In this document: piece by piece, positions 3,001 to 36,000 of the stretch
Layout: every line of letters starts with the position of its first letter
Position numbering within the stretch: position 1 is the stretch's first letter
Assembly (NCBI GenBank): GCA_020137815.1
Contig: CM035351.1
Location: forward strand, 8,866,001-8,930,000
Source of the DNA: Hormiphora californensis
Taxonomy: Eukaryota; Animalia; Ctenophora
Length of the DNA: 64,000 nucleotides
Direction of reading: 5' to 3'
Notes under the pieces: model-generated
Told to the model about the DNA's origin: nothing
The model's input: the letters and a program-made list of their open reading frames with translations, nothing else
The model's database searches: none
Program-made: the position numbers and the translations under genes

Positions 3001-6000
3001 TTGCTGTAATTGCGAAAAACAATAACTCATTTTCGCCATCGTGGATTTTTTGTGATTTTGTTTTTGATGATTATAGGGACCCATATGGACCAAATAGTGA
3101 AGGAATTAGCTTGTTAAACATTTTTCCATAGTTTCGGTCCTTTCTTAGCTAAAATTCCCTAATTACAGGATATTGGAGTTTAGCTTTTGCCCTTTTCATA
3201 GAATTTGTTTTTCGCAATTACAGCAAAAACGGTTGAAGTAGGAGCAAAATGTCTCTCAGAAGACCCCCCCAAAATCGGACCTTCTGAATCGTTTAAGCAT
3301 AGTCTCAGGTCTCTACGATCAGCCGTTTTTGAGATACAGGGAATTTATTTATTTCTGAAATGACGGCTTTCACAAAAAAAACTCTGTACAGCTTATCTCA
3401 AATAAGGACACGCCCAAAATTTATGGCCACTTAGATAATCGTTAGACGCAACTTTTCACCAATTTACAGCTTTCACATGTTTTCGGAACTTTGCCAAATA
3501 GGGCGTTAAAGTGGAAAAAAAGAAATCCATCTCAGGACCGGAAATCAGCTCGGATTGCAAAAAAATGTTTTGTGGTTATTCACCTTCATGTCCTTTTCAA
3601 ATCCCCAAATTTTCATGCTCCTATCTTTGAAAAAAAATTTTTGAGATGCCAAAAACTTATTTTCAGTTCATTTTTCAAGCAGCTGTAGCAAAAATATGAA
3701 TTCGACTTGAGAGCTCAAATTGCATATTTGAGGTCTCCTTGGCATGGCCTACAACCCTACGGTGAGAGATTTCCCTGCACTCGAAAAAAATTTTTGGTTA
3801 GCGTACCCTTAAGGGTCAGGAGATGTTCCACATATGTATCATTGGAATATGAAGCTAGTGGTTCATTCCTAATCCATTTAACAGCACGCTTTTGCAACTT
3901 CTCCAGATTTTTCAAACTACCAACATTAACATTAGACCAGATTTGGTTACAGTGCTCTATCAAAGATCTCACCATAGACAGATACAGGGTCTTCTTGTAG
4001 GAACTGCGCTTCAGAAAATAACAAGTGCGACGTAGTAGGTTAAATTTGAAAACCATAGAGGAATGTAGACTCTCAACATGTGTGTTAAACTCAAGACTAC
4101 TAGTGACAGTGATACCTAGATCTCGCTGGCTGTCAACATAATTTAAATAAGTACCACCCAAAGAGTAAAAGTATTTAAAGTAAGGTAAATTACTAAAGGG
4201 GTTCTGGATATAGGAAAGGTTACTAGACACACTCAAAACTTGACACTTAGAAGGATGGAACTTCATCATGTTGCGTTCAGACCAGGCATATAAAGCGTCA
4301 ATTGATTGTTGAAGTGATATATGGTCATTCATGCAATCAATACGACGCCATATTTTGGTATCGTCGGCATAGAGCATGATATTAGTACCCGAGGTAACCT
4401 CAGAGATGAGGTCGTTTATAAAGATCACAAAAAGAACAGGCCCCAGGATAGATCCCTGGGGGACACCAGAACTGACAGGCAGTATATCTGAGCTCTCACC
4501 GTCAACAACAACTTTCTGAGATCTCTGTCTCAGATAACTCTTCACAAAACTCAGGAGATTACCCTCAACTCCAAAAACATGCTTCAATTTGCTGAGTATT
4601 AGGTCGTGGTTACACGAATCAAAGGCACGTGAGAAGTCAAAATACACCACATCTGCACGTGCCTTGTTGTCTAATACTTCAGCAAGATTGTGGGTGAAGG
4701 GTAACATCTGAGTAGTACAGGATCTACCTGCTAGAAACCCATGCTGGCGATCATCCAGGTTAGGATAACAAATCTCTAAAAGTCTCGGCTTAACAAGCTT
4801 CTCCATAGTCTTGGCAACAAGAGAGAGTAAGGATATTGGTCGGTAATTACTAACATCCTTTCTATCTCCTTTTTTATAAACTGGGACAATGGAGGCCAGT
4901 TTCCAGCTCTGGGGAAATTCTCCCTCTCGCATAGATAAGTTAAAAAGCAGCCACAAAGGATAGGATAGAGATCCAGCGCAGTGCTTTAGGACTCTGCCCG
5001 GGATCCCATCATCACCACACGCTTTAGAAGTATCTAAAGAAGATAACGCTACATACACCTCGTTAACAGAGAAACAAACAGAAAACTCAGAATTGTCTAC
5101 CTCAATATCATACTTGCTAATTACTTACTAATTAATTTCAGATGGTTTTTCGAGTTGGCATCAACAAATTGGCAAAGTTCGGAAGGTTCGGAAGGTTTTT
5201 GTTTCCCAATCAGCACGTTGTGATAAAAGTTTTCTCTGAACTACGAAAAGAGAACCATCGTCTTGAAAAAAGAATCTTTGACTCCATGGATAGAGATAAG
5301 TACGCAGAAGCTGTTTTAATTTTAAGTTCTAGTTTCATTTAGTTAATGGAGTTCACAGCTTGTAGTTTTGAGTTTCTATTTAGATACAGAAAATAATCGA
5401 TATACTCTATTTTGAGGGGGAACTAATTTATTTTTCATTTATCAGAGCGTACGAAAACAACATTATAACAGCATTTATCGCTGATGGAGAGGCAGTGAGT
5501 CAGCAGGAGCCGTTAACTACTTTTTTAGAAAAGGTAGCCAGCCATTCCCCTAATTTACCCGCTCTTCGCAGTGTGGTTAACAGTTACTACAGCAAGGAAC
5601 CACTGTAAGTTAAACCCATTAGAGCCTCGTGATGTGAAAACGCACCATCCCAATGTTAGATTTATTCCAAAAAAGCAGCATGAGGGTCAGAATTTGGAAG
5701 CACAGAGATGTATTGCCTTTACTGAACGTTACAAGTTCTCCCTCTCCAGGTGTCTAGTGTTTAACAACTCCCTCTCCAGGTGTCTAGTGTTTAACAACTC
5801 CCTCTCCAGGTGTCTAGTGTTTAACAACTCCCTCTCCAGGTGTCTAGTGTTTAACAACTCCCTCTCCAGGTGTCTAGTGTTTAACAACTCCCTCTCCAGG
5901 TGTCTAGTGTTTAACCACTCCCTCTCCAGGTGTCTAGTGTTTAACAACTCCCTCTCCAGGTGTCTAGTGTTTAACAACTCCCTCTCCAGGTGTCTAGTGT

Positions 6001-7140
6001 TTAACAACTCCCTCTCCAGGTGTCTAGTGTTTAACAACTCCCTCTCCAGGTGTCTAGTGTTTAACAACTCCCTCTCCAGGTGTCTAGTGTATAACAACTC
6101 CCTCTCTAGGTGTCTAGTGTTTAACAACTCCCTCTCCAGGTGTCTAGTGTTTAACAACTCCCTCTCCAGGTGTCTAGTGTTTAACAACTCCCTCTCCAGG
6201 TGTCTAGTGTTTAACAACTCCCTCTCCAGGTGTCTAGTGTTTAACCACTGCAACGAGGGCTCTCTAAAGGACTATCTGGATATCCGGCCCCTTGACCTCG
6301 CCAAGACGAGATCTCTCTTCCTGGACATTTCTCAAGCCATTTCCTTTTTACACGGTCCTCACAGTAATGGGGTAACTATCATTGACGATAATTATAGCTG
6401 TGTCTAGTATAATAGTCTGACCCCGATTTACCGGAACCCCGATTTACCGGGAAGATAAACGTAACAACTGATTATCACACATCTAACGGCTAACAATTCT
6501 CCTGCAGGTGCGAATCATCCACAGTGATATCAAAACGGACAATATTTTTGTGCAGCATCGCCGAGGGAAACTATTCTTTCTCCTAGCTGATTTCGGTTAC
6601 TCTCTGGTGTACACACCCGGTCCCCAGGCATTTTCTAATTTTAGTCCACGGGGTTACACTCCGAGTCATGCTCCTCCTGAGTGGGCCTTTCTGGAGCCCA
6701 TGGAGTCAATATCAAGTACACAGTTGAATGAGGAGCAGGAAAGCGCTTATCAGATGCGTGGTCGCCATCCCACCGCCATAGACATCTACCAAATGGGGTT
6801 GGTGATGTGGCAGGCTTTCAGTAGGACCTCACCCTGGCAGGACCGGGTAGTAAATCCTGCAGGGGGTAGGGACATGCTTAGAGAACTATTCAGGAATGAT
6901 TTCCTGGCACGACCTGAGTTCCCTATCTTGGACAAGGGGGACAATAGACAAGTAGTGTACGAGAAATTGAAGGGGATCGTTAGAAGATGTTGGCACCACA
7001 GGATTGAAAGTAGACCAAGTGCAGAGACACTTCACAAACTTTTAATGAAGGCGTTTTCCGATAAGGATTCTAAAAAAATTGCATATTCGGAAGTTCTATG
7101 TTTAGAAGACTATTCGTCTTGTAATCATCTGAATCCGTAA
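57..7140 (+). CDS. Receptor Ser/Thr kinase 1: signal peptide, 2 GAS1/GFRalpha-like Cys repeats, TM, non-RD TGF-beta/activin type II-like (TKL) kinase; 10 exons
   Basis: Phase-consistent GT-AG exons: 57-132, 263-314, 476-553, 682-998, 1134-1340, 1479-1603, 5142-5299, 5446-5604, 6230-6371, 6508-7140. Signal MTSLHIAFLTFFIIVTAA; TM ITVVLLVVVGITLCCILVLVIL; kinase motifs VVIKVF, GSLKDYL, HSDIKTDN, ADFG, APPEW, DIYQMGLVMW, CWHHRIESRPSA. Confidence 0.88.
1890..5118 (-). mobile_element. 5'-truncated CR1/L2-group LINE (RT ORF2 and 3' UTR) in intron 6 of kinase 1, interrupted by a foldback element
   Basis: ORF 3757-5058 has RT motifs NYRPISLLS, QHGF, DFSRAFD, GVPQGSILGP, YADDTK. Removing 2419-3808 plus one TTAA joins it in frame (EHLLTL-N-MLPFKYL) to ORF 2051-2413. 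Outer ends approximate. Confidence 0.9.
2419..3808. mobile_element. Non-autonomous foldback DNA transposon with TTAA target duplication (Kolobok-like termini)
   Basis: TTAA at 2415-2418 and 3809-3812; termini GGGTACGCTAACC...GGTTAGCGTACCC; near-identical inverted arms about 2419-3022 and 3205-3808; about 180-bp spacer; no transposase. Confidence 0.9.
5738..6246 (+). repeat. 30-bp tandem array (17 copies) of the intron 8 acceptor/exon 9 junction
   Basis: Unit ctccctctccag|gtgtctagtgtttaacaa, with AG ending at 5749+30n up to 6229. The last copy runs into exon 9 (CLVFNHCNEGSL). Confidence 0.95.
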
Positions 7141-7405
7141 ACTATCACCAAAAATATACCATTCACTTTATCTGCATACATACTACCTTATTTTTATTCA
7201 GAAAATATGAGCCAAAATTAGACCACATCTTAATATTTTATTGCTATAGTTCATAGTTTGATGTTTTTAACTGTTTTCACCAACTTTTTTACTAATATTT
7301 GTTGGCAAATTGCCAATGGCAATGTTTTCTACTTAACTCTTTTCTTTTATTTCAAAACTTAACTCGTTCGTATTGTGACTATGCTTGCTGACAAATCAAC
7401 ATTTT

Positions 7406-7553
<148 letters not shown>

Positions 7554-7950
7554 ATGTCTCGCCCAATGTCAGAGCGTCAGAGCGATGCCAAACCAGTAAC
7601 CAGTAACCACTCTCTGTTCGCCTGAACAACTCAACCTGTCAAAAAGCTGTCAGGCCAATGCTCTGACCACAGTTCTTGCGCGCTCTGACAGTCAAAAAGG
7701 GACCATTGTCAAAAATGGGAACATTGTCAAAAGCTGTCAGAGCGTTTGAGGGATCAGGCATCTATAAATTCTGCAGAGCACAACAGAGTAAACTGAACTG
7801 AATTAATTTTAGTTCTGTTCAAACAGGATCGAGCAAGTTGATTTACCTTTCGAATCTGTCAGAGCATTGGCCTGACAGTTTCGAATGTAGTCTCCGCAGA
7901 TAAGAGATAACTCAACATTACGTATTCGCATATTTCATTGTTCTACTATC

Positions 7951-8633
7951 ATGGAATACAACATTAATATATCATGGGCAGGACTGTACGTCAGTGCGAT
8001 AGCCAACACCTGCTATAACTCAGTACATGTGTCTCACATTACAGATAAGGGGTGTGTGTCACACACTGTGTGCTGTTGTTTTGTACATGTTTCTAGCTAG
8101 CTGTCTTATTGTGACGGTGCAACAATATATGGGTATGCATCGCAATATGTTAATATCTTGAAAACTCAGCTGACTAGATTTAACCCTGCATGTTAATATT
8201 ATTTAGAGGAGGGGTTATCTTATTGGTTTGAATTAACTGGTTGAAATAATTCACCGTACTGCTACATAATAACGCACAATGTGTCTTTGACGCACAACTG
8301 ATGGCGAAACACCGCGGAATATTAATTGTGGTGACTGTGCTGTGTAATATATTTATTCTCTCCCAGTATTTGGTGTCCAGGAGCCTCCCTCCCAGTTTGC
8401 TGCTCAGCTGCACATAACAGCACCAACTACAGAACATAACAACTATACTGGTGCAGCAGGGATCCAGGGGGTACAGAAGATTTGTCGCCCGGGCAAGTTC
8501 TATGTGCCCCAGGTGTCAAACTGCCGGAGATGCTCTAAATATGTTGGTGCGTGTGTGTTAAGCGGGGTATACTTGGTTCATTGTCACCCTGGTCATATTT
8601 GCATTGTATCAACTGTACAAATATCGCACTCTC

Positions 8634-8698
<65 letters not shown>

Positions 8699-11622
8699 CT
8701 CTCTCTCTCTCTTTCTCTCTTTCTCTCTCTCTCTCTAACGCTAACTTTTTAAATGTGTTACAGGTAAAAAGTACAGTGGTTACAATTGGACTTCATGTGA
8801 GCCCTGTGAAACGTGGCCTCAACGTCCCTGCTGTAAGTCATCCCAGTTTCCATTCAGAGATCGAGGTGTTGTTTGAGCTAAATCAAATCATTAACATCTA
8901 ATGTTTTGTGGTAGGGGTGTTGATGGAACTATTTTCAGATTGTGATTTAACGGTGGATAACTTACATTCCATTTCCAACTCTCTTGGTTGTCATGACTAC
9001 AATTGTACCCAGGATTGCTATCTCCAGGCACGTGGTAACGTGACCGGTATATGGGACATGTACGACACCACCGCCATATCCACCATGGTCAACTACCAGT
9101 CTTGTTCCTGTGAGGGGGCCGCTGATGTGGGTGTATGTGAGAGGGACAGGGCCTTTACCCACTCGTGTTTGGTAAACGAGTGTGGGGAGAGGTGGGGCTC
9201 CTTAGGGACCGATCTCTGTGACTTCTCCATCTCAGACCGATGTGAGAGGGGGTGTTGGGAGTGGGTTCAGAGGAACTTGAAGGATGGCATCCATCTGTGT
9301 CACTGCAACCAGTATCTCAAGAGGAACGAAACATGCGAGAGTAGGTACCATGTCGGACCCCCCGGGCCTCAATTTACCGGACAAAACCCTTTCCCCCGAG
9401 CAACCCAGTAAATCGTGGTCCAACTGTAACGTATTTTCCTCGTATTAGTTTGATTAATACAAATTACAACGTTTACCAAAGTGGATTTAGTTGCCAGGCC
9501 TATTACCAACACACATCATCCAAATGAACCCTCATGTTTCAGATTACCGTGAAAAGTTTATCCTTTGTGCTGGAGGGGGGCCAACAACAACTCACCCTGC
9601 TACTACTCCTGGTCCCATAACTACATCTGCCCCTCGTCCTGCCCCTATAAGGTGGACTACTATCACCCCACCGTTACTACTTATCCCACTACTCCTGTTG
9701 GTGATTTGGTGGTGTATTCGCTTCAGAACTCCCCCAGGTACCCCCTCCCCTCCTCGCCCCACCCGGCCCCCTCGCCCCCAAGCCTCCCTCGCCCCAAAGC
9801 CTCCATCGCCCCAAGCCTCCCTCCCTTGTTGAGTAAGGGGTGACCCCTCGCCCCAAGCCTCGCTTCCCCCTCTCAGTTTTATCTCACGGTACCCCATAAA
9901 CAGTTAAACTATTTTACTGAATATTCTGAGATCTGAGCAAGAGTAGTTTATTCTGAGCCATCTATAAACCATGACATTTCTTCGCCCTGTGCAATCGTTT
10001 AAAGGTGCCCCTCCCCAGTTAAAATATCGGATGGTATTGGAGCGATATCTCCTTATGTGGTATGGAGTTCAATAAAGTTCATTGGACACACAGGAAGGTA
10101 TCTAGGACACGGGGGAGACTGGCGTCTACTAGAGAAAAGAGAGGTAATTTTATTGGATGTTTTGATATGTATGTGATTTGCATTTATACGAGTTGTTTTC
10201 AGATGGTTATTCGAGTTGGCATCAACAAGTTGACAAAGTTCGGAAGGTTCGGAAGGTTTTTGTTTCCCAATCAGCATGTTGTGATCAAAGTTTTCTCTGA
10301 ACTACGAAAGGAAAACCATCAACTGGAAGCTGGTGTGTTTAAATTCCTTGATCAGAAAAAGTAGGTTGTTGGTCTGGTTGGTTTTACAGTTTCTCCACAT
10401 AATATGTTTGTCTGGCGGCGCCAGACCCCGATTTCGAAAGTTCACTCAGATGGGGTCCATATTTTTCGATATAATCTATTACCCCACTCACATCTCTCCA
10501 GGTGTCGCGAGAACAACATCAATACTGCGTTCATTACTGATGGAGAAGCGGTGACTCAGCAACGGCCCCTAATTGACTTTCTGAAACGAATTGTCAGCCA
10601 ATCACCAAACCTGCCCGCCCTGGGAGAAGCTGTCAGTAGTTACTACTGCAGAGAACCTCGGTAACTATTTAACTAATTTGACTCCTAGTCGAGCAGCGTG
10701 CGAGATGTACAGCCAGTGCCTGACAACCTAGTTGGTGTTGTTCCTATTTATCTGTCACTCAGTAAGATGGGTTTTTAACCCCCTCCCCCACTCAGCTGCC
10801 TTATACTAGAGTACTGCAATGGTGGATCTCTTAAAAAGTATTTGGAAACCAGAGCTCTTGATTTGGCCGGTACTAGATCTCTGTTTCTGGATATTTCTCG
10901 AGCCATTGCTTATCTACACGGTCCGCACGGTCAACAACAGGTATTTTCATATTTTGTGGGGGTCTGAGATGGGGAATTATTTATATTGCATTTTACAATA
11001 ATCTAAATCACCCCCCCCCCCCCAGGAATCAATAATTCACTCTGATATCAAGCCTGATAACATCTTTGTGAAGCGGAAACATCGCCATCTTGTTTTTGTG
11101 TTGGGTGATTTTGGCCATTCAAAGTGTTGTACAGCCTGGAGTGCCCAACATGGAATGTGGAAACCCAGGGGTTACACTGATACTCACGCACCCCCTGAGT
11201 GGGCTTTTCTGGGACCCATGGAGTCACAGGGAGAGTTGAATGAGGAGCAGGAAAGCGCTTATCAGATGCGTGGTCGCCATCCCACCGCCATAGACATCTA
11301 CCAAATGGGGTTGGTGATGTGGCAGGCTTTCAGTAGGACCTCACCCTGGCAGGACCGGGTAGTAAATCCTGCAGGGGGTAGGGACATGCTTAGAGAACTA
11401 TTCAGGAATGATTTCCTGGCGCGACCTGAGTTCCCTATCTTGGACAAGGGGGACAATAGACAAGTAGTGTACGAGAAATTGAAGGGGATCGTTAGAAGAT
11501 GTTGGCACCACAGGATTGAAAGTAGACCCAGTTCAGAGACACTTCATAATGACCTCAGAAATGTGTTTGAAAACCGAATTGAAGTGGTTTTATCCAATTT
11601 AGTTAACAGAGATACTGTTTGA
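7951..11622 (+). CDS. Receptor Ser/Thr kinase 2 (paralog of kinase 1) with an extra N-terminal TNFR/Eph-like Cys motif; 11 exons
   Basis: Exons 7951-7985, 8101-8132, 8367-8546, 8764-8832, 8915-9340, 9543-9737, 10019-10143, 10203-10360, 10502-10660, 10796-10940, 11026-11622. Putative signal MEYNINISWAGLCLIVTVQQYMVFG; TM PPLLLIPLLLLVIWWCI; HSDIKPDN, GDFG, APPEW. Kinase intron positions and phases match gene 1. The first two exons are less certain. Confidence 0.85.
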
Positions 11623-12533: not shown

Positions 12534-13347
12534 TTATCTTCGGCCCCTGAATCCGCCACCACCACCACCTCGACCTCTAAATCCACCGCCACCACCTCGG
12601 CCTCGGCCCCCACCTCGACCACCGCCTCCCCTGCCTCTGAAGCCACCTCGGCCTCGACCACCAGGGGTTCCACCACCAGCCCTCTTCACCTTAGGAGCGG
12701 GGGGCTTGGGAAGGAATCTGGAGAGCGGCAACAGTTTCATGGGGTTGATGTAAAACGGCTGAAAAAAAGAGAGGGTCAATTAGTTGTTTAGTTATGCTGT
12801 TGAGAGTTTGAAAAAACTGCACCAAATACTACTCATAAACATAATATATACACACCTGTTTCCGTTTGAAGGAGTCAGCCTTCATGTTTGGTAGTAGTTT
12901 GACACTCATCATGTACTCGTTAATTGGTCCAAATATCTCGTCGACCTTCCCAACTTGTTCCTTATTTTCCAGGTAGATGGGGGCATTGAAGTATGGTACC
13001 ATATCGTTATCTGCACGCAGCACCAAGTCTCCCTCACAGGAGTTCATTAGCTGGGGAGGGAGGAGAGGGTAAGATGGGGAATGATCATGATAATATAGCA
13101 TGTATTATAGGGGTGGGGTCATGAACTGGGGGAGAGGAGAGGGTTAGTGGAAACAATAAAAGATGGGGAAGGAGTAGAGGGGAATATAATAGTGGGGGAG
13201 ACAATTAAAACACAAGATACAGGGACAAGTTACCTTTCCGATTTTAGTGACGGAGTCTGGGGGTCCTTCATCGTAATGCCTGCCTCCACCTCTACCCCCT
13301 CCACGTCCACCTCTCCCACCGCCACGTCCACCACCTCGGAAACCCAT
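12534..13347 (-). CDS. GAR1: H/ACA snoRNP subunit 1 (GAR1)
   Basis: Exons 13347-13234, 13050-about 12856 and about 12758-12534. Core VPYFNAPIYLENKEQVGKVDEIFG and FYINPMKLLPLSRFLP, flanked by RGG boxes. Confidence 0.96.
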
Positions 13348-13968: not shown

Positions 13969-16786
13969 TTAGGCAGCCACTACAGCGCAGCAGGTAAACT
14001 CCCGGCTCTCTCCCGCCTGTAAGGAAGGAGTTAGGTTAAAAGGAACTGGGGATATAGTGGGTCATATAGGACTTAGTAGTGAGACATGCTAGCTGTCTAC
14101 ACAAACGGGAATGATTGTTAAGGCCACGGTAAATTGAAACTACTAATTGGGGGCTAATTAGCTAATTACCTGGACAATGTTGCTGATAAGGAATCCCTCA
14201 GGACAGATGATATTATCATCATCAGTAGTAAACTTATCACACTTGGATCCAATAGTAGGGGGTATCTCCCTGGGAAGTAATGAGTGTGTCAACTTACTAT
14301 GTGTTTAGAAATGCTAAACAGAGAAAATCACCCAAACAGGGGGGGTTCCAACCTATTTTTTTGTATTTTTTTGTATTTTTTTGTACGGACCATACATAAA
14401 AGTATCCAAAATTCCTGTTTTTTTCCATACAAACAATACAAAAAAATACAAAAAAATACAAAAAAATAATGAAGGATGTGGGTGCGTGAAAAAAGTATAA
14501 ATAATACATGCACATGAACATAAATGGAACCCAGCTATACATAAACGGTAAGAAATTGCGATTCGGGGAAATTTCTCGCTTAGAAAATACGATTTGAGAA
14601 CATTTTCTCGGTAAGAAATTGCGATTTGGAGAAATTTCTCGCTTAGAAAATACGATTCGAGAAAATTTCCCGAAAATTTTCTCGGTAAGAAATTGCGATT
14701 CGAGAAAATTTCTCGCTTAGAAAATACGACTCGAGAAAATTTTCTCGGTAAGAAATTGCGATTCGGGGAAATTTCTCGCTTAGAAAATACGATTCGGGAA
14801 AATTTTCTTGGTAAGAAATTGCGATTCGGGGAAATTTCTCGCTTAGAAAATACGATTCGAGAAAATTTTCTCGGTAAGAAATTGCGATTCGGGGAAATTT
14901 CTCGCTTAGAAAATACGATTCGAGAAAATTTTCTCGGTAAGAAATTGCGATTCGGAGAAATTTCTCGCTTAGAAAATTCGATTCGGGAAAATTTCCCGGT
15001 AAGAAATTGCGATTCGGGGAAATTTCTCGCTTAGAAAATACGATTCGAGAAAATTTTCTCGGTAAGAAATTGCGATTCGGGGAAATTTCTCGCTTAGAAA
15101 ATACGATTCGAGAAAATTTTCTCGGTAAGAAATTGCGATTCGGGGAAACTTCTCGCTTAGAAAATATGATTCGAGAAAATTTTCTCGGTAAGAAATTGCG
15201 ATTCGGGGAAATTTCTCGCTTAGAAAATACGATTCGTGAAAATTTTCTCGGTAAGAAATTGCGATTCGGGGAAATTTCTCTCGCGATTTTGGCATGCTAC
15301 ATATGTAAAATATGTATATATTTTGTGCTAAATTGCGTGAAATAGCGTGGAAGAATGTTTAAAAACAGTAAAAGTTCGAACAATAATGGTAAATTACCAT
15401 ATAAAACTGTTTTTATTTTTTTGTTTTTTTTGTACTTTTTTGTATTTTTTTGTATTTTTTTGTATTTTTTTGTTTGAGGAAACCCGTGTTTTTTTCCGTA
15501 CAAACGTACACGAAATAGGTTGGAACCCCCCCCCCAAACATGATGAAAATATGGAGCCCAGGCCAAGTATGCAGATCTAGACAGTCTAGACAGGCAAACA
15601 TTGAATCAGGAAAATATTGAAAACGAGAAAATCAGCGGAAAGAAAATCATGCTCCCTCAATTTTTAATTACAAACTCAGATCGTACATGCACATCTTGAG
15701 GCACCTTTTCACCGGGTGTTCCAACACCCGCCTCGCCCCTTTGTCCCTGTCGGCCGTGAGATCCGGGAGGTCCCTCGGGCCCCTCTGGTCCTTCGGGTCC
15801 CTGGGGTCCAGCAGGTCCTTGTTCACCTGGGGCTCCAGCCTCTCCTGCGATGGAGGGGAAACATTGTTGAGAATAGATTATTGTGTTTGCTGAAGACGTG
15901 AAGACGTGATACACAGTGATCTCGAAAGCTTCTGTCAATTTATTTGATTTAGTACCATTATATCGTTGTCTATCTTGTTAATTATTGTGTTTGTATTATA
16001 ACAACACGAATAGTAACTATTATTGACTATTGAGAAATAAAAAGTATTTTCTCACCCTGTGGTCCGACAGCTCCATCCTTTCCAGCAGCACCGTTCTCAC
16101 CAGCAGGTCCAACAGGTCCAACAGGTCCCTCAGGTCCCACAGCGCCTTGTTCACCCTGAGGTCCAGTAGGTCCAGTAGCGCCAGCAGGTCCAGTTTCTCC
16201 AGCAGGTCCGGCAACTCCCTGAGCACCATCTTTTCCATCAGCTCCATTAATTCCAGCGACACCCTGTTCACCTTGTTCTCCAGCAGGTCCAGCGGGTCCG
16301 GGAAGACCTTGTGCCCCGGCAGGTCCCTGGTTTCCAGCGGCTCCCTGGGGTCCAGCAGGTCCAGCGGGACCCCTCATTTGCTCCTTGTCAGACAGAATTC
16401 CCTCTAGTTCAGATACACGGGAAGAGACAACGTTGAGCTCTTGGGAAAGTGCCTGGGGGAGAAATTAACCCTGATTAGCTGTGTCAATTGCAATTAGACT
16501 AGTACTGTAATAGGGACGTGGGCTGTAAACCTGTTAGATAATGTGTGACTGTAACACCACAGCCGTGTGACTATAGTAACACCACAGCGGATGGTAAACT
16601 AACCTGGAGTCCCTGAATGATTTCCTTGGTGTGATTTTCCTTTTCCAGGACAACAATTCTCATTTGGAACCAGGATGCGACCAGGGCGAAGATGACAGCA
16701 AGACACACAGTGGGAAGGAGAGATCCAATTCCCTCTGGCTTGGGGCCAGGGTGGACAACGGTGCCGCCTTTGTTCTTAGAAACCAT
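13969..16786 (-). CDS. Type II transmembrane collagen-like protein: short cytoplasmic N-terminus, TM, coiled coil, Gly-X-Y, small Cys-rich C-terminal module
   Basis: Exon 1 MVSKNK...LLPTVCLAVIFALVASWF...GLQ; exon 2 ALSQELNVVSSRVSELEGIL then GXY; exon 3 GXY to PGEK. Inferred last exons are 14269-14170 (SKCDKFTTDDDNIICPEGFLISNIVQ; needs one extra C removed from a C5 run) and 14016-13969 (AGESREFTCCAVVAA*). The 3' linkage is inference; the alternative stop is at 15657. Confidence 0.75.
14339..15532. mobile_element. Non-autonomous TIR element (MULE/foldback-like) with 8-bp TSD and internal minisatellite
   Basis: TIR gggggggttccaacctattt / aaataggttggaaccccccc; TSD cccaaaca at 14331-14338 and 15533-15540; subterminal (tacaaaaaaa)n / (tttttttgta)n in inverted orientation. 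Confidence 0.82.
14545..15282 (+). repeat. 63-bp tandem repeat (about 11.5 copies), itself a dimer of related ~31-bp subunits
   Basis: Unit cggtaagaaattgcgattcggggaaatttctcgcttagaaaatacgattcgagaaaattttct. Confidence 0.95.
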
Positions 16787-17012
16787 CCTGATTCTTTAAG
16801 GGGCATTAGAGTTGGATGGCTTGTTGGAGACATTAGAGAAAACAAAGTGATTCTGTAATCTGATAAGTATCAGCACTTGAAACAGCAAAAACTATTAGAA
16901 TATCTTGTAATAAAAAACAAATACAGATTTACTTAGTTGGCTCTATTTACACACAGTCACTGTATTATACAGACAAGGTTACATAGTTTAGTTAATGATT
17001 ATATTTAGTGCA

Positions 17013-18281: not shown

Positions 18282-18665
18282 GAAGGATCCATAATATAGT
18301 TCAAGAGCCTCCAAGAGCGCACCCCATCCAAGAGAGACCAAACTCAAGAGCGCACCACAATCAAGAGAGACCAAAATCAAGAGCACACCACAATCAAGAG
18401 AGACCAAATCAAGAGCGCACCACAATCAAGAGAGACCAAATTAAGAGCGCACCTCATCCAAGAGAGCTCCCTATCCAGAAGATACCAGATGTGGTGCACT
18501 CTTGAATTTGGTCTCTCTTGATTGTGGTGCGCTCTTGATTTGGTCTCTCTTGATTGTGGTGTGCTCTTGATTTTGGTCTCTCTTAATTGCGGTGTGCTCT
18601 TGATTTTGGTCTCTCTTCATTGTGGTGCGCTCTTGGAGGCTCTTAAACTTTATTATGGTTCCTTA
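18282..18665. repeat. Foldback structure built from ~30-bp tandem units in two opposing arms
   Basis: (caagagcgcaccacaatcaagagagaccaaa)-like units on the left arm and their reverse complements on the right; ends aaggatccataatatagttcaagagcctcc / ggaggctcttaaactttattatggttcctt. Confidence 0.85.
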
Positions 18666-19288: not shown

Positions 19289-21668
<2,380 letters not shown>

Positions 21669-22163: not shown

Positions 22164-23379
22164 TCAGCTAGTCCGAAGATGTTTATTAGATGGTCCTGGA
22201 GTGTCTTCCCCAGCTCCTCCTCCTCCCCCTCCTTCCTCTGTCAGGTCACTGACTTCTCTCTTTTTTGAATTCCCTGGGGTTCCCTGTAATGATACATTAT
22301 TATGCCAAAAATGGGAAAATTATGGCACTTTTATAGACATTAAACAGGACCTTTAAATAAATAATCCGTACCGAGACAATGTAATGATCGACAGTGCAGC
22401 ATTCCTGGTAACACTGACCTTACTATAGTTCCACCGTTTGCTGTAGAACTTCATCAGCAGGTTCCTCTTATCCGCCACTATAACCTGGGGCTCTGGATCC
22501 GTCTCTTTTACCACTGATATGTATTGTATCGGCCGTTTACACTAGAGACAGGGGATGGTGTTACAGTTTACACTAAAAACAGGGGATGGTGTTACAGTTT
22601 ACACTAGAGAGACAGGGGATGGTGTTACAGTTTACACTAGAGACAGGGGATGGTGTTACAGTTTACACTAAAAACAGGGGATGGTGTTACAGTTTACACT
22701 AGAGAGACAGGGGATGGGGTTACAGTTTACACTAGATACAGGGGATGGGGTTACAGTTTACACTAGAGACAGGGGATGGGGTTACAGTTTACACTAGAGA
22801 GACAAGGGATGGTGTTACAGTTTTGGAGACTAGATCTAGAGAAAGAACCACTAACTTTCCTTAATACAGTCGGACCCCGATTTAGTGGCATCCTCGGGGG
22901 GAAAAATTCCTGCCACTAAATCGGGGTGCCACTAAATAGGGGTCAAATAATGTTAATTTCCTATATCGGGGGAAACAAATCCTGCCATTAAATCGGGGTG
23001 CCACTAAATCGGGGTGCCACTAAATCGGGGCCCGACTGTATTCCTTAGCCCAAAGTGAAACAAATCAAGTTGGACAAATTGTTCGAAATTGGTGATGCAA
23101 TCCCCTCTTATGTTCGCGCTTTGCCCGGATGGTAGTGGAGGGCCCTGTGTCACCAAGGTTCGATAACGTGAACGACAAACGTGTAATTCCTTAGTCCCCA
23201 AAGGAGTCTAAAAAGTGAGGTAAACAACTCACCACAGTTTTATTTCTGTCGTAAGAGGCGAAGTTGCTTTTGTTGTGGATAGGTAGATTTAGTAGGCATG
23301 TCTCTGTGTGTTTTGGCACCCCACTACTACTACTGCTGGTCCCATGACACACCTTATCCTCTCCTTCCTCCTCGAACAT
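22164..23379 (-). CDS. DDA1: DET1- and DDB1-associated protein 1
   Basis: Exons 23379-23233, 22541-22419 and 22283-22164, all phase 0: LLNLPIHNKSNFASY..|CKRPIQYI..EPQVIVADKRNLLMKFYSKRW..|KKREVSD..NKHLRTS*. Compare recalled DDA1 [42 protein letters not shown]..KKR. Confidence 0.88.
22536..22822 (-). repeat. 31/33-bp tandem array (about 9 copies) of the DDA1 exon 2 acceptor
   Basis: Minus-strand unit ctgtaacaccatcccctgtctctag|tgtaaa. Confidence 0.93.
22867..23038. mobile_element. Tc1/mariner-type MITE
   Basis: TA flanks; TIR cagtcggaccccgatttagtgg / ccactaaatcggggcccgactg. Confidence 0.85.
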
Positions 23380-23784
23380 GGTGTCCTAATATATTGGGAA
23401 TAATGGGACTAGTTTAGTGGGGGTGTTAGAGGAGGTGCTGACTGTTGGAGAGTTGTATTTAGGATCAAGGGTTGGATGGGAGACTGTCCTAATATATTGG
23501 AGATAATGGATTGAATAAACATAATATTGAGGAGAATGGGATTGGTCCAATGGGGTTTCAGAGGATTTAGGATCAAGGGTTGGGGTGAAATGAAATTCAA
23601 AACACGTTGCTTTTCTAATAAGATATAGAGCATTAAACAGCAAAATAAAGTGCTAAAGAATCGTCACCCTCTCAACAAATACAACACCAAATAAAACAAA
23701 AGAACTCAAACATCAAAATGTTGGTATCTGAATAGAACCCGGCGGACTTGTGCCATAATTATAGCTAGATAAAACATTCTCCCA

Positions 23785-24070
<286 letters not shown>

Positions 24071-24091
24071 ATCGTTTTCTCTACCACACAA

Positions 24092-26492
24092 CTAGTACTG
24101 TTCTCCCATCATCAGTACAACTAAGCTGCTCCACCCGGTAAAAGGGTGGACACTCTGGCCCCTCCCTGTCTGACAGTTATACTGCTCCCAAATGTACCCC
24201 GTCCTCTTATACTCCAGGTACATATTGTTCACAATGTTATCCCTCAGCTCCTTGTACAGGGCCCCAGATAACTCTTGGTGGGGTCCCACAACTTTGGAAT
24301 AGTGGTCCAGGGCCCGTACTGCAAGGAAGTTGATATTGATCCAGACAGGACCCCGCCAGTAAGGCGCATCATGTTGGGTGTTGTGCTTCAAGTAGTAGGA
24401 GTCGGATTTAGCTACAGAACACAGACCAAACTGGCTCCACATGCCGTTAGATTGGGTTTTCAGGTTTTTAAGGATGGTCCCCAGCTCCGCACTGGATGGT
24501 TCAAGAAGCGTTAGGATGAAGGGAAACAGGTTGACATATCCTTGGATCTTGACATGTTGATACAGCGGTAACTTCCCCACAACCCTTCTCTTCTCAAAAT
24601 GTCCCTGTCCCATGTGCTTCTCTGTCAACCCCACTACATCAGAATGTAGCCCGTAGTCCGCAAAGAACTTGCCCGTCCAATGGAGCTCCTTGAGTCTGGT
24701 ATTATTGGCCAGCAGTTCGTATGTCTCCCGGTATTGGTCCACATTGATCCCTAGTAGGTCCCCCAAGTTAGCCAGACTCCGGGACGCAAAGGCCATCCAG
24801 CATCTCAAATCCACATGATACTCACTCTCTGTGGGATGGGTCGCTCGAGGGTAGTCATCAAGACCACTGGTAAGGGTTTTAGGGTTGAGTTCCTTGTCAG
24901 TTGTCCCATTCCTGCCCCTCCATCTGTAGGTGGTTGGCAGGGGTCCAGATTGGGTTGTGTTGTACCAGTTGTACCAAAACGCCATCCTATGGAACATCTT
25001 CTTCAGCGTGGAGTGGTGGTCCAAGATCTCAGAGGGCTGCATGTCAGTAACGAGGGAGTCCAGAGAGAGGAAGAGGGTGGGAGGGTTAGCATATTCAGCG
25101 TTCTGTACCACAAACTCTGGAGGAACCTTAGTCAGTGCCTCGTTTCCTAGGATCTGTTCTCTAGGGATCCAACCCCGTGCATTCATTAGGTTCAGCCAAT
25201 GTCCGATGATCTCAAGAGAGATGGTATGGTCCCATTTACCTATCAGCAACTGATGGAAACCCTCATCCCAAAGAAATCCCCGGGGGAAGAAAGATCGAGA
25301 AGGGACAGCGGAGTAGAGAGAGGAGGGGTTATAGTACACTGGTTCAGAGTCTTCAGATTCCTTTACAATAGACTGTCCATGGAAATACCCAATACCACCA
25401 ATCAGATTACTGAACGTACTCCTCGCAAAAGCTGATGTAAGATTCAGAGTAACCCTTATCCTTTAGTCCAAATTTCTGCTCAAATTTCTTGTCGAACTCC
25501 TCACTATACTCAGCTAACACAGACTCGTAGTGGCTCCCTTCCAGGGTCTCTCTTTGACGGTTGATGTTCAGATTCTCATATACCACCTCAACCTCACTAT
25601 CCAGAGCTAGGGTGAGCTGCATGACGACAAAGTTGCTCTGCTCGCTGCACTGGGTTTTACTGGACTTGATCCCGAACAGCCTCCCACCCCTGATGTTCCC
25701 CGACATTTTCATGTGGTGTTTTATGTAGTCAGAGATGAGGTGCAGAGGTACATCAGTCCCGCAGTGTAGAGCGCTGTACAGGATGGGCTGATTTTCTAAC
25801 ACCGTCTTGTACTTGATGTTGAACTTCCCCAACTCCAGTGTCTCGCCATAAATCGAGTAGCCGTTGGGTATAGCAGACATCATTAGCTTGGAATTGCGGT
25901 GCTCCACGCCAATATACCAGAATAGAGAGATGGCTTTAGGACGCTCCGAGCCCGGACTGTTGACCCCGTTGACCTTCACTCTCGCTGTCCAGTCCTGCAG
26001 GGCGTAGTTCGCTTTTACGAAACTAGTTTCCAACTCATAGCCGTTATCGACTAGCTTCTGGACTCCAAACTTGTTGCCGTCATGTCGCTGCCACATGAAT
26101 GATTTCAACTCCCTCTGTTCGGAGGTATGTCGGAGACTAGCCTGACCATGAGGTCCCATGACGGGCATCCAGGCAAGACCAAATATAACTGATTCTGGTA
26201 TCCGGGGTCTGATTCCAAAGTAGACCTGGGGTCGGTAGCTTCCCCATAGTCGGGCAAGTTGGTCCTCAGTGCCTGTACAGCACTCTGGGTACACCAGGGG
26301 TAGGTAGGGTTGGGCAGTTAGTGTGTTGGGCTGCTTATAGAAGACGTAGATCATAGAGCATGCCAAAATGGCTGCGGAGATCATGGAAGGAACTCTGCTC
26401 ATTCCCCCTCCTCCAGCTTTCTTTGTCACGTTTTTAGGATCTTTCGTCGGTTTGCCTGGTTTCTGGGACTTCTTTTTGTCTCCAGATCCCAT
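24092..26492 (-). CDS. MOGS: Mannosyl-oligosaccharide glucosidase (GH63); single coding exon with one apparent frameshift
   Basis: Motifs LWGSYRPQVYFG, AVPSRSFFPRGFLWDEGFH, GWIPREQILG, SGLDDYPR, YWRGPVWININ, HPFTGW. The two ORFs join as SFARSTFSNLIGGIGYFHG if one base of the 25427-25430 run is removed. Confidence 0.95.
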
Positions 26493-26688
26493 CGTCACTG
26501 AGAAATAGTGAAAAATGTTACTAGCAAATATAAATTATCAAATGAACGCATACATCATTTTAAGTAAAACTGTGGTATAGGATAAAACAATTAATAATAT
26601 AGTTAACAGTAAAAATAATAGTAAAACTAAAGTTCAATAATTCTCTCTGATCTATGAACAAATAAACACCATTCGAAAACAACACATT

Positions 26689-29569: not shown

Positions 29570-31230
29570 ATCAATCAATCAATCAATCAATCAAAAACTG
29601 CCGCTGGCAGTGGCATTGCGCCGAAATAAACATATAATATCAAGCAAACCAACCACACAGACCAAACTGAGTGAGGATTCAGGGTGGCGTAACAGGGTCG
29701 TCAGCACGAAGACGGTTAGGTCTTATGTGTGCTTTGAACCTGCTACCCCACCCTGGTCCCCACTATGTCTTTACAAAACTGAAAACCAAAACAATAGTAT
29801 AAATCATTAAATAAATCCATATCTAAAACAATAACTTATGCATCACTCTCACTAAATTCTCTCAACACTTCTCACGTTTCACTCTCTACAATAGAACCTT
29901 TTCTAATCCTCCAGACTTTATCAGGTTCATTATCTCTTTTCTCTCTCAGTTTAGCAACTAATTCTCGTCTCTCAGTTCTCTCCTCTACTGATCTGTCTGG
30001 TGCAACAAACACTGACTGATACTGGTCTGAGTCCTTCAGAGTCGCTGATTTTCCCAAAATAGTTCTGGCAATTTCTCTGTTCCTCAGCACCACCCGCACT
30101 GGCCGCACTCCCTCACCACCTCTCTTACCAAGTCGTGCCACCTCTGTTAACACTGGCGCCTCAGACAACTGTTCAAATAGTTCCTTTACTAAAGTACTGT
30201 CACTTTGCTGGTCACTCTCTGCGAGACCATATACCATCAAGTTGCTACTACGATCAACTGAAGCACTGGCAATTGCTGTTCGGAGTTTACTGGGAGCAAG
30301 GGCAGTTACGCAGGTCTGGTTTACAGCAGTAGCAGCTGTCTGAAGAACAGCAGAGTAGTTCTGGATCTCGTCTTTAACAACTGTCTGTACAGCAGTCACA
30401 CTCTTCTCTAGCATGGTGTCCTTCATGGATATTATAGAGTCTTTTAGGGCACTGATCTCTGATTGCAGTTCAATGATCTTGGAGTCACGTTCTAATACCA
30501 AATCTGTAGCACTGTCAAGGCGGTCACGGGTGTGGTCCAGATGCTCCATAAGCTTCTCTACCGTTTCTTTCGATTCATTACTGCACACAGAACTATTCTG
30601 TTTCGCTCTCGTGTCAGCTGATAACAACTCCTTCCTAGCTAATCGACTAAGAGGAAGTGCACGAAACCAAAGCAAACCAGCCATGTCAGAAAGAAGCTGT
30701 ACTTTCTTGTTCGTGTCTAGACTTGAGAGGTATTTGCTGGTCAACTTATTCGGATCAAACTCACCGCCTTCCTTGTTAGGGTCAGGGTACCCAGCAACTC
30801 GCCTCAATGTAGATAAGATAGACGTCTCCAGCTTACTGTAATCAGAAGTCATACCATAAGGACGGTTGCCCGGACCGCCCTGTTGCCAGGTAGTGAAGGC
30901 ACGATCCAACTTGGAGGCCATGTTCGTACGCGTGTACAACGGTGCAAGATCAAAGATACATGGATGGTTCATGGTGCTGGGTCCCTAGGAGCGGCAGCTC
31001 CGGTCACGGGTGTGGTGACAAACAAGTTGGGCCAGATCTTAGGGACGCAGGTCGCAGATACGGTGGGGGTGTCCGCTGGCGCTGTCTGTAGTGTGCGGAT
31101 CCCCCAGGCTGCAGGGTTGAGGGGCTGCAAGTTTAATAAAGCCATACACTCGATAATATTCCGTTACCCAATGCCTTCCGTACACCGCTCACAATTAAAC
31201 CGGTCACACTTCACCTGCCGATTAATTGGT
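29570..31230 (-). mobile_element. ORF1-only non-autonomous LINE derivative (L2/CR1 group)
   Basis: Intact ORF1-like ORF, about 280 bp of 3' UTR, a stem-loop actgcc-agc-ggcagt and a (TTGA)n tail at about 29570-29594. No endonuclease or RT between ORF and tail. 5' end approximate. Confidence 0.7.
29872..30972 (-). CDS. LINE ORF1-like protein (coiled coil plus RRM-like/CTD)
   Basis: NLMVYGLAE...RLGK...RPVRVVL...LK...SVFVAPDRSVEER..RRELV is the typical CR1/L2 ORF1 C-terminal signature. Confidence 0.8.
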   Translation of the reverse strand: MNHPCIFDLAPLYTRTNMASKLDRAFTTWQQGGPGNRPYGMTSDYSKLETSILSTLRRVAGYPDPNKEGGEFDPNKLTSKYLSSLDTNKKVQLLSDMAGLLWFRALPLSRLARKELLSADTRAKQNSSVCSNESKETVEKLMEHLDHTRDRLDSATDLVLERDSKIIELQSEISALKDSIISMKDTMLEKSVTAVQTVVKDEIQNYSAVLQTAATAVNQTCVTALAPSKLRTAIASASVDRSSNLMVYGLAESDQQSDSTLVKELFEQLSEAPVLTEVARLGKRGGEGVRPVRVVLRNREIARTILGKSATLKDSDQYQSVFVAPDRSVEERTERRELVAKLREKRDNEPDKVWRIRKGSIVESET

Positions 31231-31317
31231 CAAGAAGAGGATTACATTTTACAATTTTACGCTTTCAACCTTTATATAAGAATTTACCTTGCTTTTATTT
31301 TGTCTTTTTCCAACTAG

Positions 31318-32432
31318 GCACTATTGAGGAGAAAATTCATCAGAAGCTCCTCCCGGCGATAACCGGTCAGCCAGTTGTAAATGAAACCTTGAGATTGGTT
31401 GCAGCCCTCCCTGTAAGATTCGGAGGACTAGGAGTAGACAACCCTCAAATATCATCAGACTCAGACTACAGTTTCTCAAAGTTTGTTACTGAAGAGCTCT
31501 CAGTTGCAGTCCTGGCTCAACAGGAAACATTCAAAATCAACCAAAAGGAACGAGCAGAGAAGAAAACCCTCATCCACCGAACCAAGAACGATATTCATCA
31601 GAAGAAAATCGACGAGATCAAAAACATGATGACTACAGCTGAAATCAGAAACCTGGACCTACTCATGGAAAAGGGGGCCTCATCCTGGTTAACATGTCTC
31701 CCTCTCCAATCTTTGAACTTCACCCTCAACAGACAGGAGTGGCACGACGCCATGTCAGCCCGTTATAACCTGCCTCTCGTCGGACAGGCCTTACCTCAGC
31801 ATTGTGCATGTGGGGAAGAAAACACCATCGATCACCTCATATCCTGTAAACTCGGAGGTTTTGTATGTTTCCGACACAACAACGTGAGAGATTTCATTGG
31901 CCACGAACTGAATAAAGTATGTGTCGACACTAAGATCGAACCCCATCTCCTAAATGTTAGAGGGGTGAATCTTCCGGCTGGCACTATAACAGCCGATGGC
32001 GCCAGACTTGACATCAGTAGTCGCGGCTTTTGGTCGGATATGGACAATATCTATTTCGATGTAAGGATTTTCAATCCAAGGATATCGTCCAATTCAAACC
32101 AGACCATCGCCAAAACATATGAAAAACACGAGAGAGAGAAGAAAACATCCTACCTCCACCGTGTCCTAGAGGTGGAAAAGTCAACATTCACACCACTGGT
32201 CATGTCAACTACAGGGGGCCTTGGAAGGGAATTTAATAAGACTTTGAAACAATTGGCTGAGAAGAAGGCGACTAAAACAGGATATTCATACGATCAGTGT
32301 ATCCGGTACCTGAGGCTAAGGTTGTCATTTGCCATGGTCCGCTCCGTCACCATTTCCATCAGGGGGCACCGCGGACGACTGAGGGCAGAAGGCAGCAGCG
32401 GTCGGGATGACAGTATCTACCAAATAGACTAA
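31318..32432 (+). mobile_element. 5'-truncated CRE-type non-LTR retrotransposon (thumb, CCHC, restriction-like endonuclease)
   Basis: LPVRFGGLG, GASSWL, CACG..DHLISCKLGG..RHNNVRD, ARLDISSRGFW, FDVR, HEREKK..Y, TFTPLVMSTTGG. Confidence 0.85.
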
Positions 32433-33080
32433 ATCTTTTATTTATATAATTTATTGACCCCGTTTGTTTAATTTATTATTGACATTGTAAGTGTGTGTAC
32501 CACTATTTATATTCAAGGCCAATATCGGCCGACCCCCCCCCCCCCCCGCTCAAAACATTTTCCTTCTTTTTTTTTTCCAATTATCAAACTCAGTAACACT
32601 GCAAGTTCACTGCCCTAGAGAGATTTGCATTTTGTCGAGTACTAACAAGTTGTCAGTAGCAACTCATTAGTCTAATGCCCAGCACATATGAGTCACTGAC
32701 ATGCACCTGCTGTGTACCAACGGTTCGACTCTTTCTCTCTCCTTCTCTTGTTGATATTTCTAAACCCAAGTTGCTGTATTGCTTTTCTTGTCATGTGTCC
32801 GGCATTTGTCTTATGTTACTCTTCCACTCTTCCACTCTCTCGCTCTTCCACTCTCTCGCTCTCCCCCGTTCTCCCTCTATTTCTTTCTTTCTCTCGCACC
32901 CATCTTTCTCTCCCCCTCTCTGTCTATCTCCCCTCTCTCTTACTCTCTCTCTTGAATCTTGATCCCCTTATGACGTCACCCTCACTTGTGATATTACTCA
33001 CGACTCATAGTGCATGTCGCTGCTCCTGCAGCACAATGACGAGTTGCAATAAAAGTATTTCCCGGTGTTCTTCCCTACAG

Positions 33081-36000
33081 CATGATATGGGCAGAATTAA
33101 AAAGCTCAACGGAGAGATAAATGAAAAGATCCTAGGAAAGCTGCCCAAAGTTAGATCCAACCTGGAGGACCTGCAATTTGACGAGGACTCTATTGATGGA
33201 ATATCCATCCTATCTTTTAACACATACGATGATCTGAAGGTAGGAAATGGAGTGAAAGTGTGTCATGGCTAGAGAGAGAGATTGAGATAGTGAGGGAGAG
33301 ATTTGAGAATGAGGTGAGCAAACAATGAGAATATATATACGAGAGAGGGGTAGTGGGGAGAGACAAGGAAGTAAGCGGTACAAGAGTAAACCACCCACCA
33401 AGAAAGAGAGAGAGAGAAATAAATATGCAGAAAGAGAGAGGGGGAGTAATAAGCATGTCGCGGTTAATTTGATTTAACTTCCTACTACAGGAGTATTACC
33501 CGATTGAACAAATAGAGCCTGAACACCTGAAAGAAGAACCTAAGAAAGATCCTGCTAAAAGGAGGCGACGAGATAAGGTACTTCTTTGTGCTGTTGCAAT
33601 ACAAGTACTTCTCTAAAGATATATATTTAAATAATTGATACATTTATAATGCATTTATGTTTTGACGATCTCTTTATCTCTTCTCTTTATACAATTTTGA
33701 TGTGTCTCTTTTGTCCCAATTCTTTATCTCTTTCTCTTGTTCTCTCCGCTGATTCACATCATTCGCTTACACCTGGCAACCATTGCAGTGTGCGGACAAG
33801 GGAGCTTCAAAACCGAAAGTAAAACGTAAACCTACTCTCAAGCAACAGGTAAGAATATTTTCCGAATATTTGCACCCAATGGCCCTCTTTCTCAACACTC
33901 CTGAATACATTCTCATTATTCCGTTGCGGCGAATATAACGATGTCACCCCTCTAGCTAGCCATTCTCCCCCTTCTGTCTGCTAAATTTCTCCCTTTCGAA
34001 TCTATCTAAGGGATCTTCCCTCCTTCTGCTGTAGCCCCCATTTCTCCCCTCCTCTCCCTATCTATTTAGGGAAGCTTGAGTCAGTTTGATAAGAGTGAGG
34101 TAGGTGCACGAATTGCAACCCTGTCACTGTGTGTGTTTTAATTGTTGGGTCTTGTTGTGATCAGATCATGCAATGGAAGGGATCAGGAACCGACCGAATC
34201 AGGAAATACTGGTCCCTGATTGGCTGATAACCAGTCACGTGACCTAAATAACGAGTTCTGATTGGTTGTTTACTTGTGTCGGTCGGTTCCTGGGAGGGAT
34301 GATGTGCTGTGTTAATACATGTGTCTGCCGCTCTCTTTCACCACCACGTTTTACACGCCGCTTTTACCCGTGGATGCTATATAACAGTACTTAATAAGTC
34401 CCCCCACCTCCCGTGCCAGCTCACTAATAAAGTATATAACTCTTTCAGAGCGAGACAGATGAAGTTAAAAACATCCTTGTTAAGGTGGGTGTTTTTAGTG
34501 TCAACCTGCATGCGAGATGGGAGGGAGAGAGACAGATAAAAATAGAGGGACAGAGAGAGAGAGTGATGATAGGAGTAGATTGATTGTAATACGTAGAGTA
34601 AGGAGCGTGAAAGAAGGGTGGCAGAGAGAAAGAGAGAGAGAAAGAAATAGAAGGGTGGCACAGAGAAGAAGTCTACCTACATCTGATGAGGCCCGTGCCG
34701 AGTGATGTAAACACCACCACCCTATCTCCCTCCTCTCGTGTTACTGAAATTAATATGCCCCCGCCGTAGGGCTGTTCCGCAATTTCGGTAATTTACCGCT
34801 CTATCTGGATTAAGTTTCCCCCAATCTGCAGGATTCAGAGAGTCCCACGGTATCTCCCCCGGTACCTGGATCTAATGTATCAGTGGTTGCCCCCGCCGCC
34901 AATACCACCACGCCAATCACTTCTACTACCACCACGACCACCATTAAGGTAAACTCTGATGAATTCTTGCTGACACTTGTCACTTCCCTGCCTTCTACTT
35001 GGTATGAATATAGGGGACTTTATTATTGAGAAATATACCCTGTCTTTTAAAATGCTTTTAATCTCCTATTTAATTTAAAATGTCTTTCGCTACATCCCCG
35101 TGTCTTCTCTGTGATGTCCTCTTCTCTCTCTGTGTTAGTACAGTCGGACCCCGATTTAGGGGCCCCCGATTTAGTGGACACCCCGATTTAGTGGACAAGA
35201 GCCTTTCCCCCGAGGGTGTCCCTAAATCGGGGTCCGACTGTATACTTCTGCAATTTGTCAGTTATTTTACCCCGACTAGCGGTTTCTAGTTCCCACGTCT
35301 CTCACCATCAACGATTTAGCGTTATTCCTTCCCTCACTTTTCCCCCTTTTTACAGTCGGAGGGATCAAGTACCAGTCACCAGACGAGTATAGCAGTTGTA
35401 TCTCCAGCTGTGAGTGCTCCTGCACCTCCCACCTCCATGCCGGCCACCCCTACAGCATCCTCCTTCTCGGCTCCATTGGCACCCCCTCCTGGGGTTGCTG
35501 CTGGGGTTGCCATGGCTACCAGCCCCATATACCAACCACCCCGGTCCAGTGTTCCCCACCAGCTCCTACATCGCCACCCCCACCACCCCCACATGCCTAT
35601 AATGACAGGGGCACGAGGCAATGCAAACCAACTCTTCCAGCATCTCTCCAACCTACACCACCAGCAACAACACAGGCACCCCATCGCGGCACCCCGGCTT
35701 CCCCCTCACTCTTTAGGTATGTACAATGTATTTACAGTACACCCCGCAGTTCTCTCAATATTGGGTAGAATATTCTTTGGCCATGACTCACAGGACATGT
35801 AACTCCATTGGTTACAGCATGTTACCCTTGGTTACCTCTATTGTGTTACAGGTGACCGGTTACCCTTGGTTAACCTCTCTCTATTGTGTTACCTTGGTTA
35901 CCCTTGGTTAACCCCTCTCTATTGTGTTACAGGTGACCGGTTACCCTTGTCTGAAATGAAGATGAGTCCCGGATTCGACCCCCGGTTATTGCTGCAACAT

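Follow-up and report, generated by a model that had tools for sequence, protein, structure and literature searches.

Tandem copies of acceptor junctions in the short introns of a ctenophore

Introduction

Minisatellites are seeded and expanded by slippage or unequal exchange. In amphioxus, repeats that lie across intron-exon boundaries are known as 'mirages', with cases in Adh3, the globins BflGb6 and BflGb9, troponin C and PGBD5; the reports describe regular splicing as intact and propose intron gain as a possible outcome (PMC3087553; PMC3902484), and somatic length instability has been reported for the Adh3 mirage. In human F7, a polymorphic 37-bp variable number tandem repeat in intron 7 spans the junction and carries functional but silent pseudo-sites, and in experiments the site beside the intact exon is used (PMC1557585). 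Further, the Rogers model derives intron gain from tandem duplication of AG/GT and has been tested in ATP2A1 (PMC3265369). Here we describe five unrelated genes of the ctenophore Hormiphora californensis in which acceptor junctions have been copied in tandem, all within one stretch of 64,000 nucleotides (assembly GCA_020137815.1, contig CM035351.1, positions 8,866,001 to 8,930,000, forward strand), hereafter the window, whose own numbering is used.

The ctenophore cases resemble amphioxus mirages in consisting of tandem boundary copies with the AG kept and in differing in length between haplotypes. Amphioxus mirages occur on both sides of introns, whereas the present cases are on the acceptor side only; they also differ in their introns of about 140 nt, in occurring in several unrelated genes within 64 kb, in units of 30–103 nt and in that normal splicing is indicated, by RNA contigs of uncertain species, in one gene. 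As in F7, a minisatellite unit spans the junction, but F7 is donor-side and experimental, whereas the copies here are acceptor-side and read from sequence. The Rogers model and its ATP2A1 test likewise involve a short tandem duplication inside a gene, with splice signals among the copied bases; there, a coding duplication gives a new intron, whereas here an existing acceptor is crossed and the intron is only lengthened. The accessible part of PMC10078293 held nothing bearing on junction-spanning units. Neither a report of ctenophore mirages nor a genome-wide count of acceptor against donor junction copies was found in the open literature, with subscription papers outside the search. The junction copies are known in kind and, as far as the open literature was searched, new to ctenophores. 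A first-pass annotation of this DNA had proposed a lineage-specific process, which does not agree with the publication of the same structure in amphioxus and human. The present cases extend mirages to ctenophores with a first number, five acceptors and no donor among 68 introns, and amount to 9% of the short-intron DNA in the window.

Gene models and sequence support

The gene models comprise 68 introns in 13 genes, placed by hand and checked by translation, with a median intron length of 142 nt and four introns longer than 1 kb. Eight models are open throughout, including those of kinase 1, GAR1, CDK and the AUTS2-like gene. Introns of three models with frame breaks or stop overrun were retained because their sites are canonical and most are common to paralogs. 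RNA supports two introns, both in GAR1. The reads compared with the assembly include the DNA runs X3 and X5, the latter a second sample, and RNA contigs X7 and X13 from environmental samples. X3 is possibly the sample behind the assembly and therefore checks the assembly, not the biology. Among the contigs of organism B, the middle of the DDA1 array is without cover and the CDK intron is little covered, a gap that says nothing about the alleles there.

Copied acceptor junctions in five genes

In all five genes, the intron end and the first exon bases are copied head to tail. The first-pass annotation had listed the same five junctions, and all of them are present, no more than 1–3 nt from the coordinates given there. 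In an anchored test, the true junction was aligned to each AG (or GT) at most 300 nt away within the same intron; at a score of at least 9, these five acceptors had a copy within their own intron and no donor had one. At this threshold, 1,312 cross-intron pairs gave a background of 0.08% for acceptors and 0 for donors, and the five copies are not chance similarity. Units span the intron-exon boundary in four clear cases, with 7–18 exon nt inside the copy, while the GAR1 copy is decayed and nearly all intron-side. The number of upstream AGs kept, here called decoys, is 16 in kinase 1, 8 in DDA1, 3 in CDK and 1 each in the AUTS2-like gene and GAR1. Nested rounds of duplication are visible in the CDK, DDA1 and AUTS2-like introns, and the array ends carry direct matches of 2 nt (kinase 1), 4 nt (DDA1) and 10 nt (AUTS2-like). 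Together, the copies have added 1,012 nt to five introns; introns shorter than 1 kb total 11,376 nt, of which this is 8.9%. Length also differs between haplotypes, since X5 departs from the assembly in the CDK intron and again upstream of the DDA1 ATG. Tolerance and intron growth, as suggested earlier for these repeats, are thus both borne out.

An array lies over the acceptor of intron 8 (5605–6229) of receptor kinase 1, on the forward strand, where 17 units of 30 nt occupy 5738–6249. Each unit joins 12 intron to 18 exon nt, and 13 of the 17 copies are identical, the copy number being that of the assembly. The last AG is at 6229, and all 16 AGs upstream of it are in frame and stop-free. The exon that follows matches Pfam Pkinase positions 74–115. 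The equivalent intron of the paralog kinase 2 (10661–10795, forward strand) serves as a control; it has no array and measures 135 nt, against 145 nt for the kinase 1 intron with the array collapsed. With the last AG used, kinase 1 is colinear with kinase 2, and all four kinase-domain introns are at the same places in both.

An HMMER search gave 83 matches, of which two close ones were confined to the last exon. Homolog searches with the last exon of kinase 1 gave no match, and a metagenome scan with it returned 11 loci with no close relative (25–60% over short stretches). The last exons of the two kinases (6720–7020 and 11235–11530) share about 100 identical codons while the remainder has diverged, which is likely the result of recent gene conversion. 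Intron 6 of kinase 1 is 3.5 kb long, against 59 nt in the paralog, and contains a pair of inverted repeats of about 590 nt (2400–3810) that look like stacked mobile elements.

GAR1 carries a decayed 75-nt duplication (13044–13200, reverse strand) in intron 1 (13233–13051), with a decoy AG at 13126 and the true AG at 13051. Of the score of this copy, 11 comes from the intron side and 1 from the exon side, the match being almost entirely pyrimidine tract, and it was missed by an ungapped duplication scan. Its 75-nt period stands out against shuffles that keep composition (P 0.003) and against each of the 64 other acceptors compared, and it is therefore read as an old, decayed copy. Exon 2 begins at Pfam position 7–8, and use of the decoy would lead to a stop after 6 codons. 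An X5 DNA contig covers both AGs with 6 differences. An X7 RNA contig skips 13051–13233 and so splices GAR1 at the last AG, with 5 differences over 341 laid bases; the end of an X13 RNA contig agrees with this joint for 12 letters. In organism B, 131 letters at the core of this intron are replaced by 196 different ones, which points to fast turnover.

The last intron of CDK (19609–19391) holds a nested duplication of 35 and 89 nt (19371–19524, reverse strand), with decoy AGs at 19515, 19480 and 19426 and the true AG at 19391. One of the three decoys carries 16 exon nt. Use of two of them would give an early stop and use of the third a frameshift. The exons are colinear with CDK1: exon 7 ends at CDK1 residue 264–265 and exon 8 starts at 266 (this second match is weak, E 0.38). 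An X3 contig (19364–19652) contains the whole intron with 0 differences. In an X5 contig, 6 other letters replace 19495–19542 and the first decoy is gone; this allele is carried by one contig, whose shorter side measures 24 letters. No CDK or DDA1 splice joint occurs among the X7 RNA matches listed. Intron 3 of CDK (20869–20925) has a duplication with a 41-nt period that duplicates a branch-like motif; it stops 11 nt short of the acceptor, which it does not cross.

In DDA1, nine units of 31–33 nt, each with 7 exon nt, form an array at 22535–22823 (reverse strand) in intron 1 (23232–22542), whose true AG is at 22542. Each of the eight decoys would lead to a stop after 3 codons, and the exons on either side match Pfam DDA1 3–21 and 29–65, which are consecutive in the profile. 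The units are present in X3 and X5 contigs, which cannot give the copy number. A further duplication of 103 nt (23382–23583, reverse strand) lies over the AG at 23386, 6 nt before the DDA1 ATG, with a copy at 23489. It was missed by the first-pass annotation and is the only such copy among 11 pre-ATG AG sites; likely, it is a sixth case, at a putative 5′ untranslated region or trans-splice acceptor. An X5 contig skips 23399–23501 here (one contig, short side of 56 letters, the letters between being unread). The same intron 1 contains a TA-flanked inverted-repeat element resembling a miniature inverted-repeat transposable element (22865–23040, no strand assigned), which is absent from X3 and X5 contigs (joint 22840–23073). 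Members of this TA-flanked family (22865–23040 and 35141–35245) are present in very many copies in each of the three DNA runs.

The fifth gene, called AUTS2-like after a weak Pfam match (E 0.013), has a duplication of 38 and 81 nt at 35796–35949 (forward strand) in intron 7 (35717–35932). The decoy AG at 35851 copies the last AG at 35932 together with 17 exon nt; it is in frame and stop-free, and would add 27 codons. A homolog search with an exon of this gene gave no match. A 14-nt palindrome at 52301–52314, in another intron of the window, has a similar word in the AUTS2-like repeat unit (35821–35949). We take this palindrome to resemble an RFX X-box.

That these copies were created by assembly is barely credible. 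Frameshifts in four genes of the window and a noisy stretch near 37,500–39,400 would fit such an origin; however, the CDK intron is identical in X3, both GAR1 AGs occur in X5, and DDA1 units occur in X3 as well as X5, so that contigs confirm three of the five genes.

Choice of splice site

We consider it probable that the five cases are mirage minisatellites produced by ordinary slippage or unequal exchange, and that the spare AGs are skipped in favour of the last copy. Short tandem duplications would be seeded by either process at short matching ends, and where a unit straddles the intron end and the exon start, spare AGs would be left inside the intron. The spliceosome would then pass over them and use the last copy, beside the intact exon, with mis-spliced products being rare or degraded. 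The last AG alone yields the conserved protein in CDK, GAR1 and DDA1, as judged from homologs or profiles, and in kinase 1, as judged from the paralog. An RNA contig of uncertain species places the GAR1 joint at the last AG; for the other four genes we infer the same choice, together with near-neutrality of the copies, and mirage-type repeats are likely to be harmless here.

Several observations weigh against this explanation. On a matrix built from the other 63 acceptors, decoys score like true sites (9.1–12.3 vs 11.1 in kinase 1, 10.4 vs 9.3 in GAR1 and 10.9–12.2 vs 10.1 in CDK), and sequence by itself therefore offers no reason for skipping them. RNA evidence for use of the last AG comes from GAR1 alone among the five genes; its contigs are environmental and of uncertain species, those animals may lack the decoy, and contigs drop rare isoforms. 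The AUTS2-like gene has no homolog to fix which AG is ancestral. In addition, at least four acceptor crossings with no donor crossing have P 0.009–0.023 under a symmetric null (one-sided, post hoc), which suggests that pure chance is not a comfortable account of the acceptor-only pattern.

If the copies instead functioned as alternative acceptors, their use would lengthen kinase 1 by 0–16 units of ten residues and the AUTS2-like protein by 27 residues. The AUTS2-like decoy and all 16 decoys of kinase 1 are indeed in frame and stop-free, and 14 of those in kinase 1 repeat the branch-like motif of the last site. There it is made of exon-derived bases, and the original branch point therefore lies before copy 1; as only 32 of 63 true acceptors have such a motif, its presence or absence carries little weight at decoys. 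Two of five genes in frame and open is near chance; decoys in GAR1, DDA1 and CDK (two of three) would bring early stops within 3–8 codons; moreover, an insert in kinase 1 would sit inside the kinase N-lobe, and the paralog has no array. We regard this alternative as very unlikely. The open frames are nevertheless an annotation hazard, as gene models might mistake the arrays of kinase 1 and the AUTS2-like gene for coding repeats.

It is highly improbable that the arrays lead towards intron gain by AG/GT duplication in the manner of Rogers, or are removed by recursive splicing. AG/GT does occur at two of the five junctions (kinase 1 and AUTS2-like), but it occurs at 11 of 68 acceptors anyway (P 0.19), and no new exon or intron position was found in the gene models. 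The intron gain envisaged by the first-pass annotation left no sign at the kinase or CDK loci, where intron positions are common to the paralogs and exons follow CDK1. Recursive splicing was also rejected on donor strength: of the two regenerated donors, one has 0.6 bits and is weaker than every true donor, and the other has 5.2 bits and stands at the 9th percentile (true donors have 4.5, 6.7 and 8.1 bits at 5, 25 and 50%).

Number and sidedness of the copies

An ungapped scan for local duplications (period 9–300, microsatellites masked) returned 52 events, 26 of which touch introns, 21 of these at a score of at least 15. Shuffled sequence gave 7–9 events, all in or beside simple-sequence runs. 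Among the 21 intron events, 17 are wholly intronic, four cross an acceptor and none crosses a donor. For a null, each collapsed unit was placed at random in four variants, four score-13 events being excluded as probable chance or weak. The four acceptor crossings compare with 1.15–2.23 expected, with P(≥4) = 0.062, 0.023, 0.11 and 0.17, and acceptor and donor crossings together show no excess (P 0.18–0.70). Enrichment over intronic repeat density, for which the first-pass annotation suggested a test, is thus borderline within the window. An excess of acceptors over donors is suggestive only, the two-sided P being 0.125 for a 4:0 split, 0.0625 for 5:0 and 0.031 for 6:0, the sixth case being without a matching donor set. 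All tests of skew are post hoc, and the window was chosen for this pattern.

These results suggest that introns this short and repeat-prone would yield as many junction copies as are seen, and that the sidedness is no more than suggestive. Where introns measure about 140 nt, a duplication of 30–90 nt would often cross a junction by geometry alone, and it is because short introns make crossing frequent in this way that the total is accounted for. With a sample this small, the acceptor-only skew may have arisen by chance. If real, it would most likely come from slip-prone C-rich pyrimidine tracts, from purging of donor copies, or from both.

A process aimed at 3′ splice sites, through polymerase pausing or structures of C-rich tracts, would produce an excess of acceptor copies directly, and it draws on the 5:0 or 6:0 skew and on the C content of the five tracts (0.51 vs 0.32 in the other 63; P 0.03, n = 5). 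Pyrimidine content alone was rejected as a separator of the five tracts (P 0.06). We think such a process unlikely, because the excess is not significant with the four long introns set aside (P 0.11–0.17) and intronic arrays come as near to donors as to acceptors, so that a filter on crossing fits better than a hot spot. Wholly intronic arrays start 6, 9, 14 and 19 nt from donors and end 11, 26 and 30 nt from acceptors.

Such a filter is what would be expected if copies arose equally at both ends and donor copies were purged, with a GT copied downstream being recognised in a genome of short introns and extra acceptors being passed over. Of the events that come within 20 nt of a junction, 0 of 4 at donors and 4 of 5 at acceptors cross it (Fisher P 0.048, post hoc; 0.015 with GAR1 and one weaker event added). 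Yet the numbers are tiny and human F7 donor copies are silent and amphioxus has donor-side mirages. Purging of donor copies is a possible but doubtful reading; it refines the slippage or unequal-exchange explanation and is compatible with it.

Only tentatively can the pattern be extended to the whole genome, where about 7% of introns might have polymorphic acceptor copies and almost none donor copies, the last of equal acceptors being picked even in short introns and donor copies being purged or rarely made. A genome-wide skew would bear on 3′ splice-site choice in a short-intron animal and on intron lengthening. If this is true, the alleles that segregate at these introns would report naturally on how 3′ splice sites are chosen and would drive intron growth in a measurable way, and an early-branching animal would follow a one-sided rule.

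Neighbouring features of the window

Frame breaks were observed at 25186–25407, in glucosidase I, and in three other genes at about 50950, at 53190 and at 57900–59300; they are likely to be assembly indels. The N-terminal part of glucosidase I is a single exon (25407–26492). Its nearest homolog is one protein of 797 amino acids, the best match has 97% identity and is from Pleurobrachia bachei, and the cluster of a 54% match contains Mnemiopsis and Bolinopsis proteins, which places the window in a ctenophore near Pleurobrachia. The stretch at 37487–39400, within a 6.1-kb intron, combines a very degenerate 42-nt satellite with a purine-rich run and may be unpolished sequence.

Four tandem paralogs at 51470–62612 have Cys/His motifs of zinc-finger type, from which the label is taken, common intron positions and Gly/Pro/Arg-rich tails. 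Units of 63 nt, about 11 of them, form a satellite at 14546–15280, and two arrays of 32–33 nt face each other as an inverted pair at 18310–18635.

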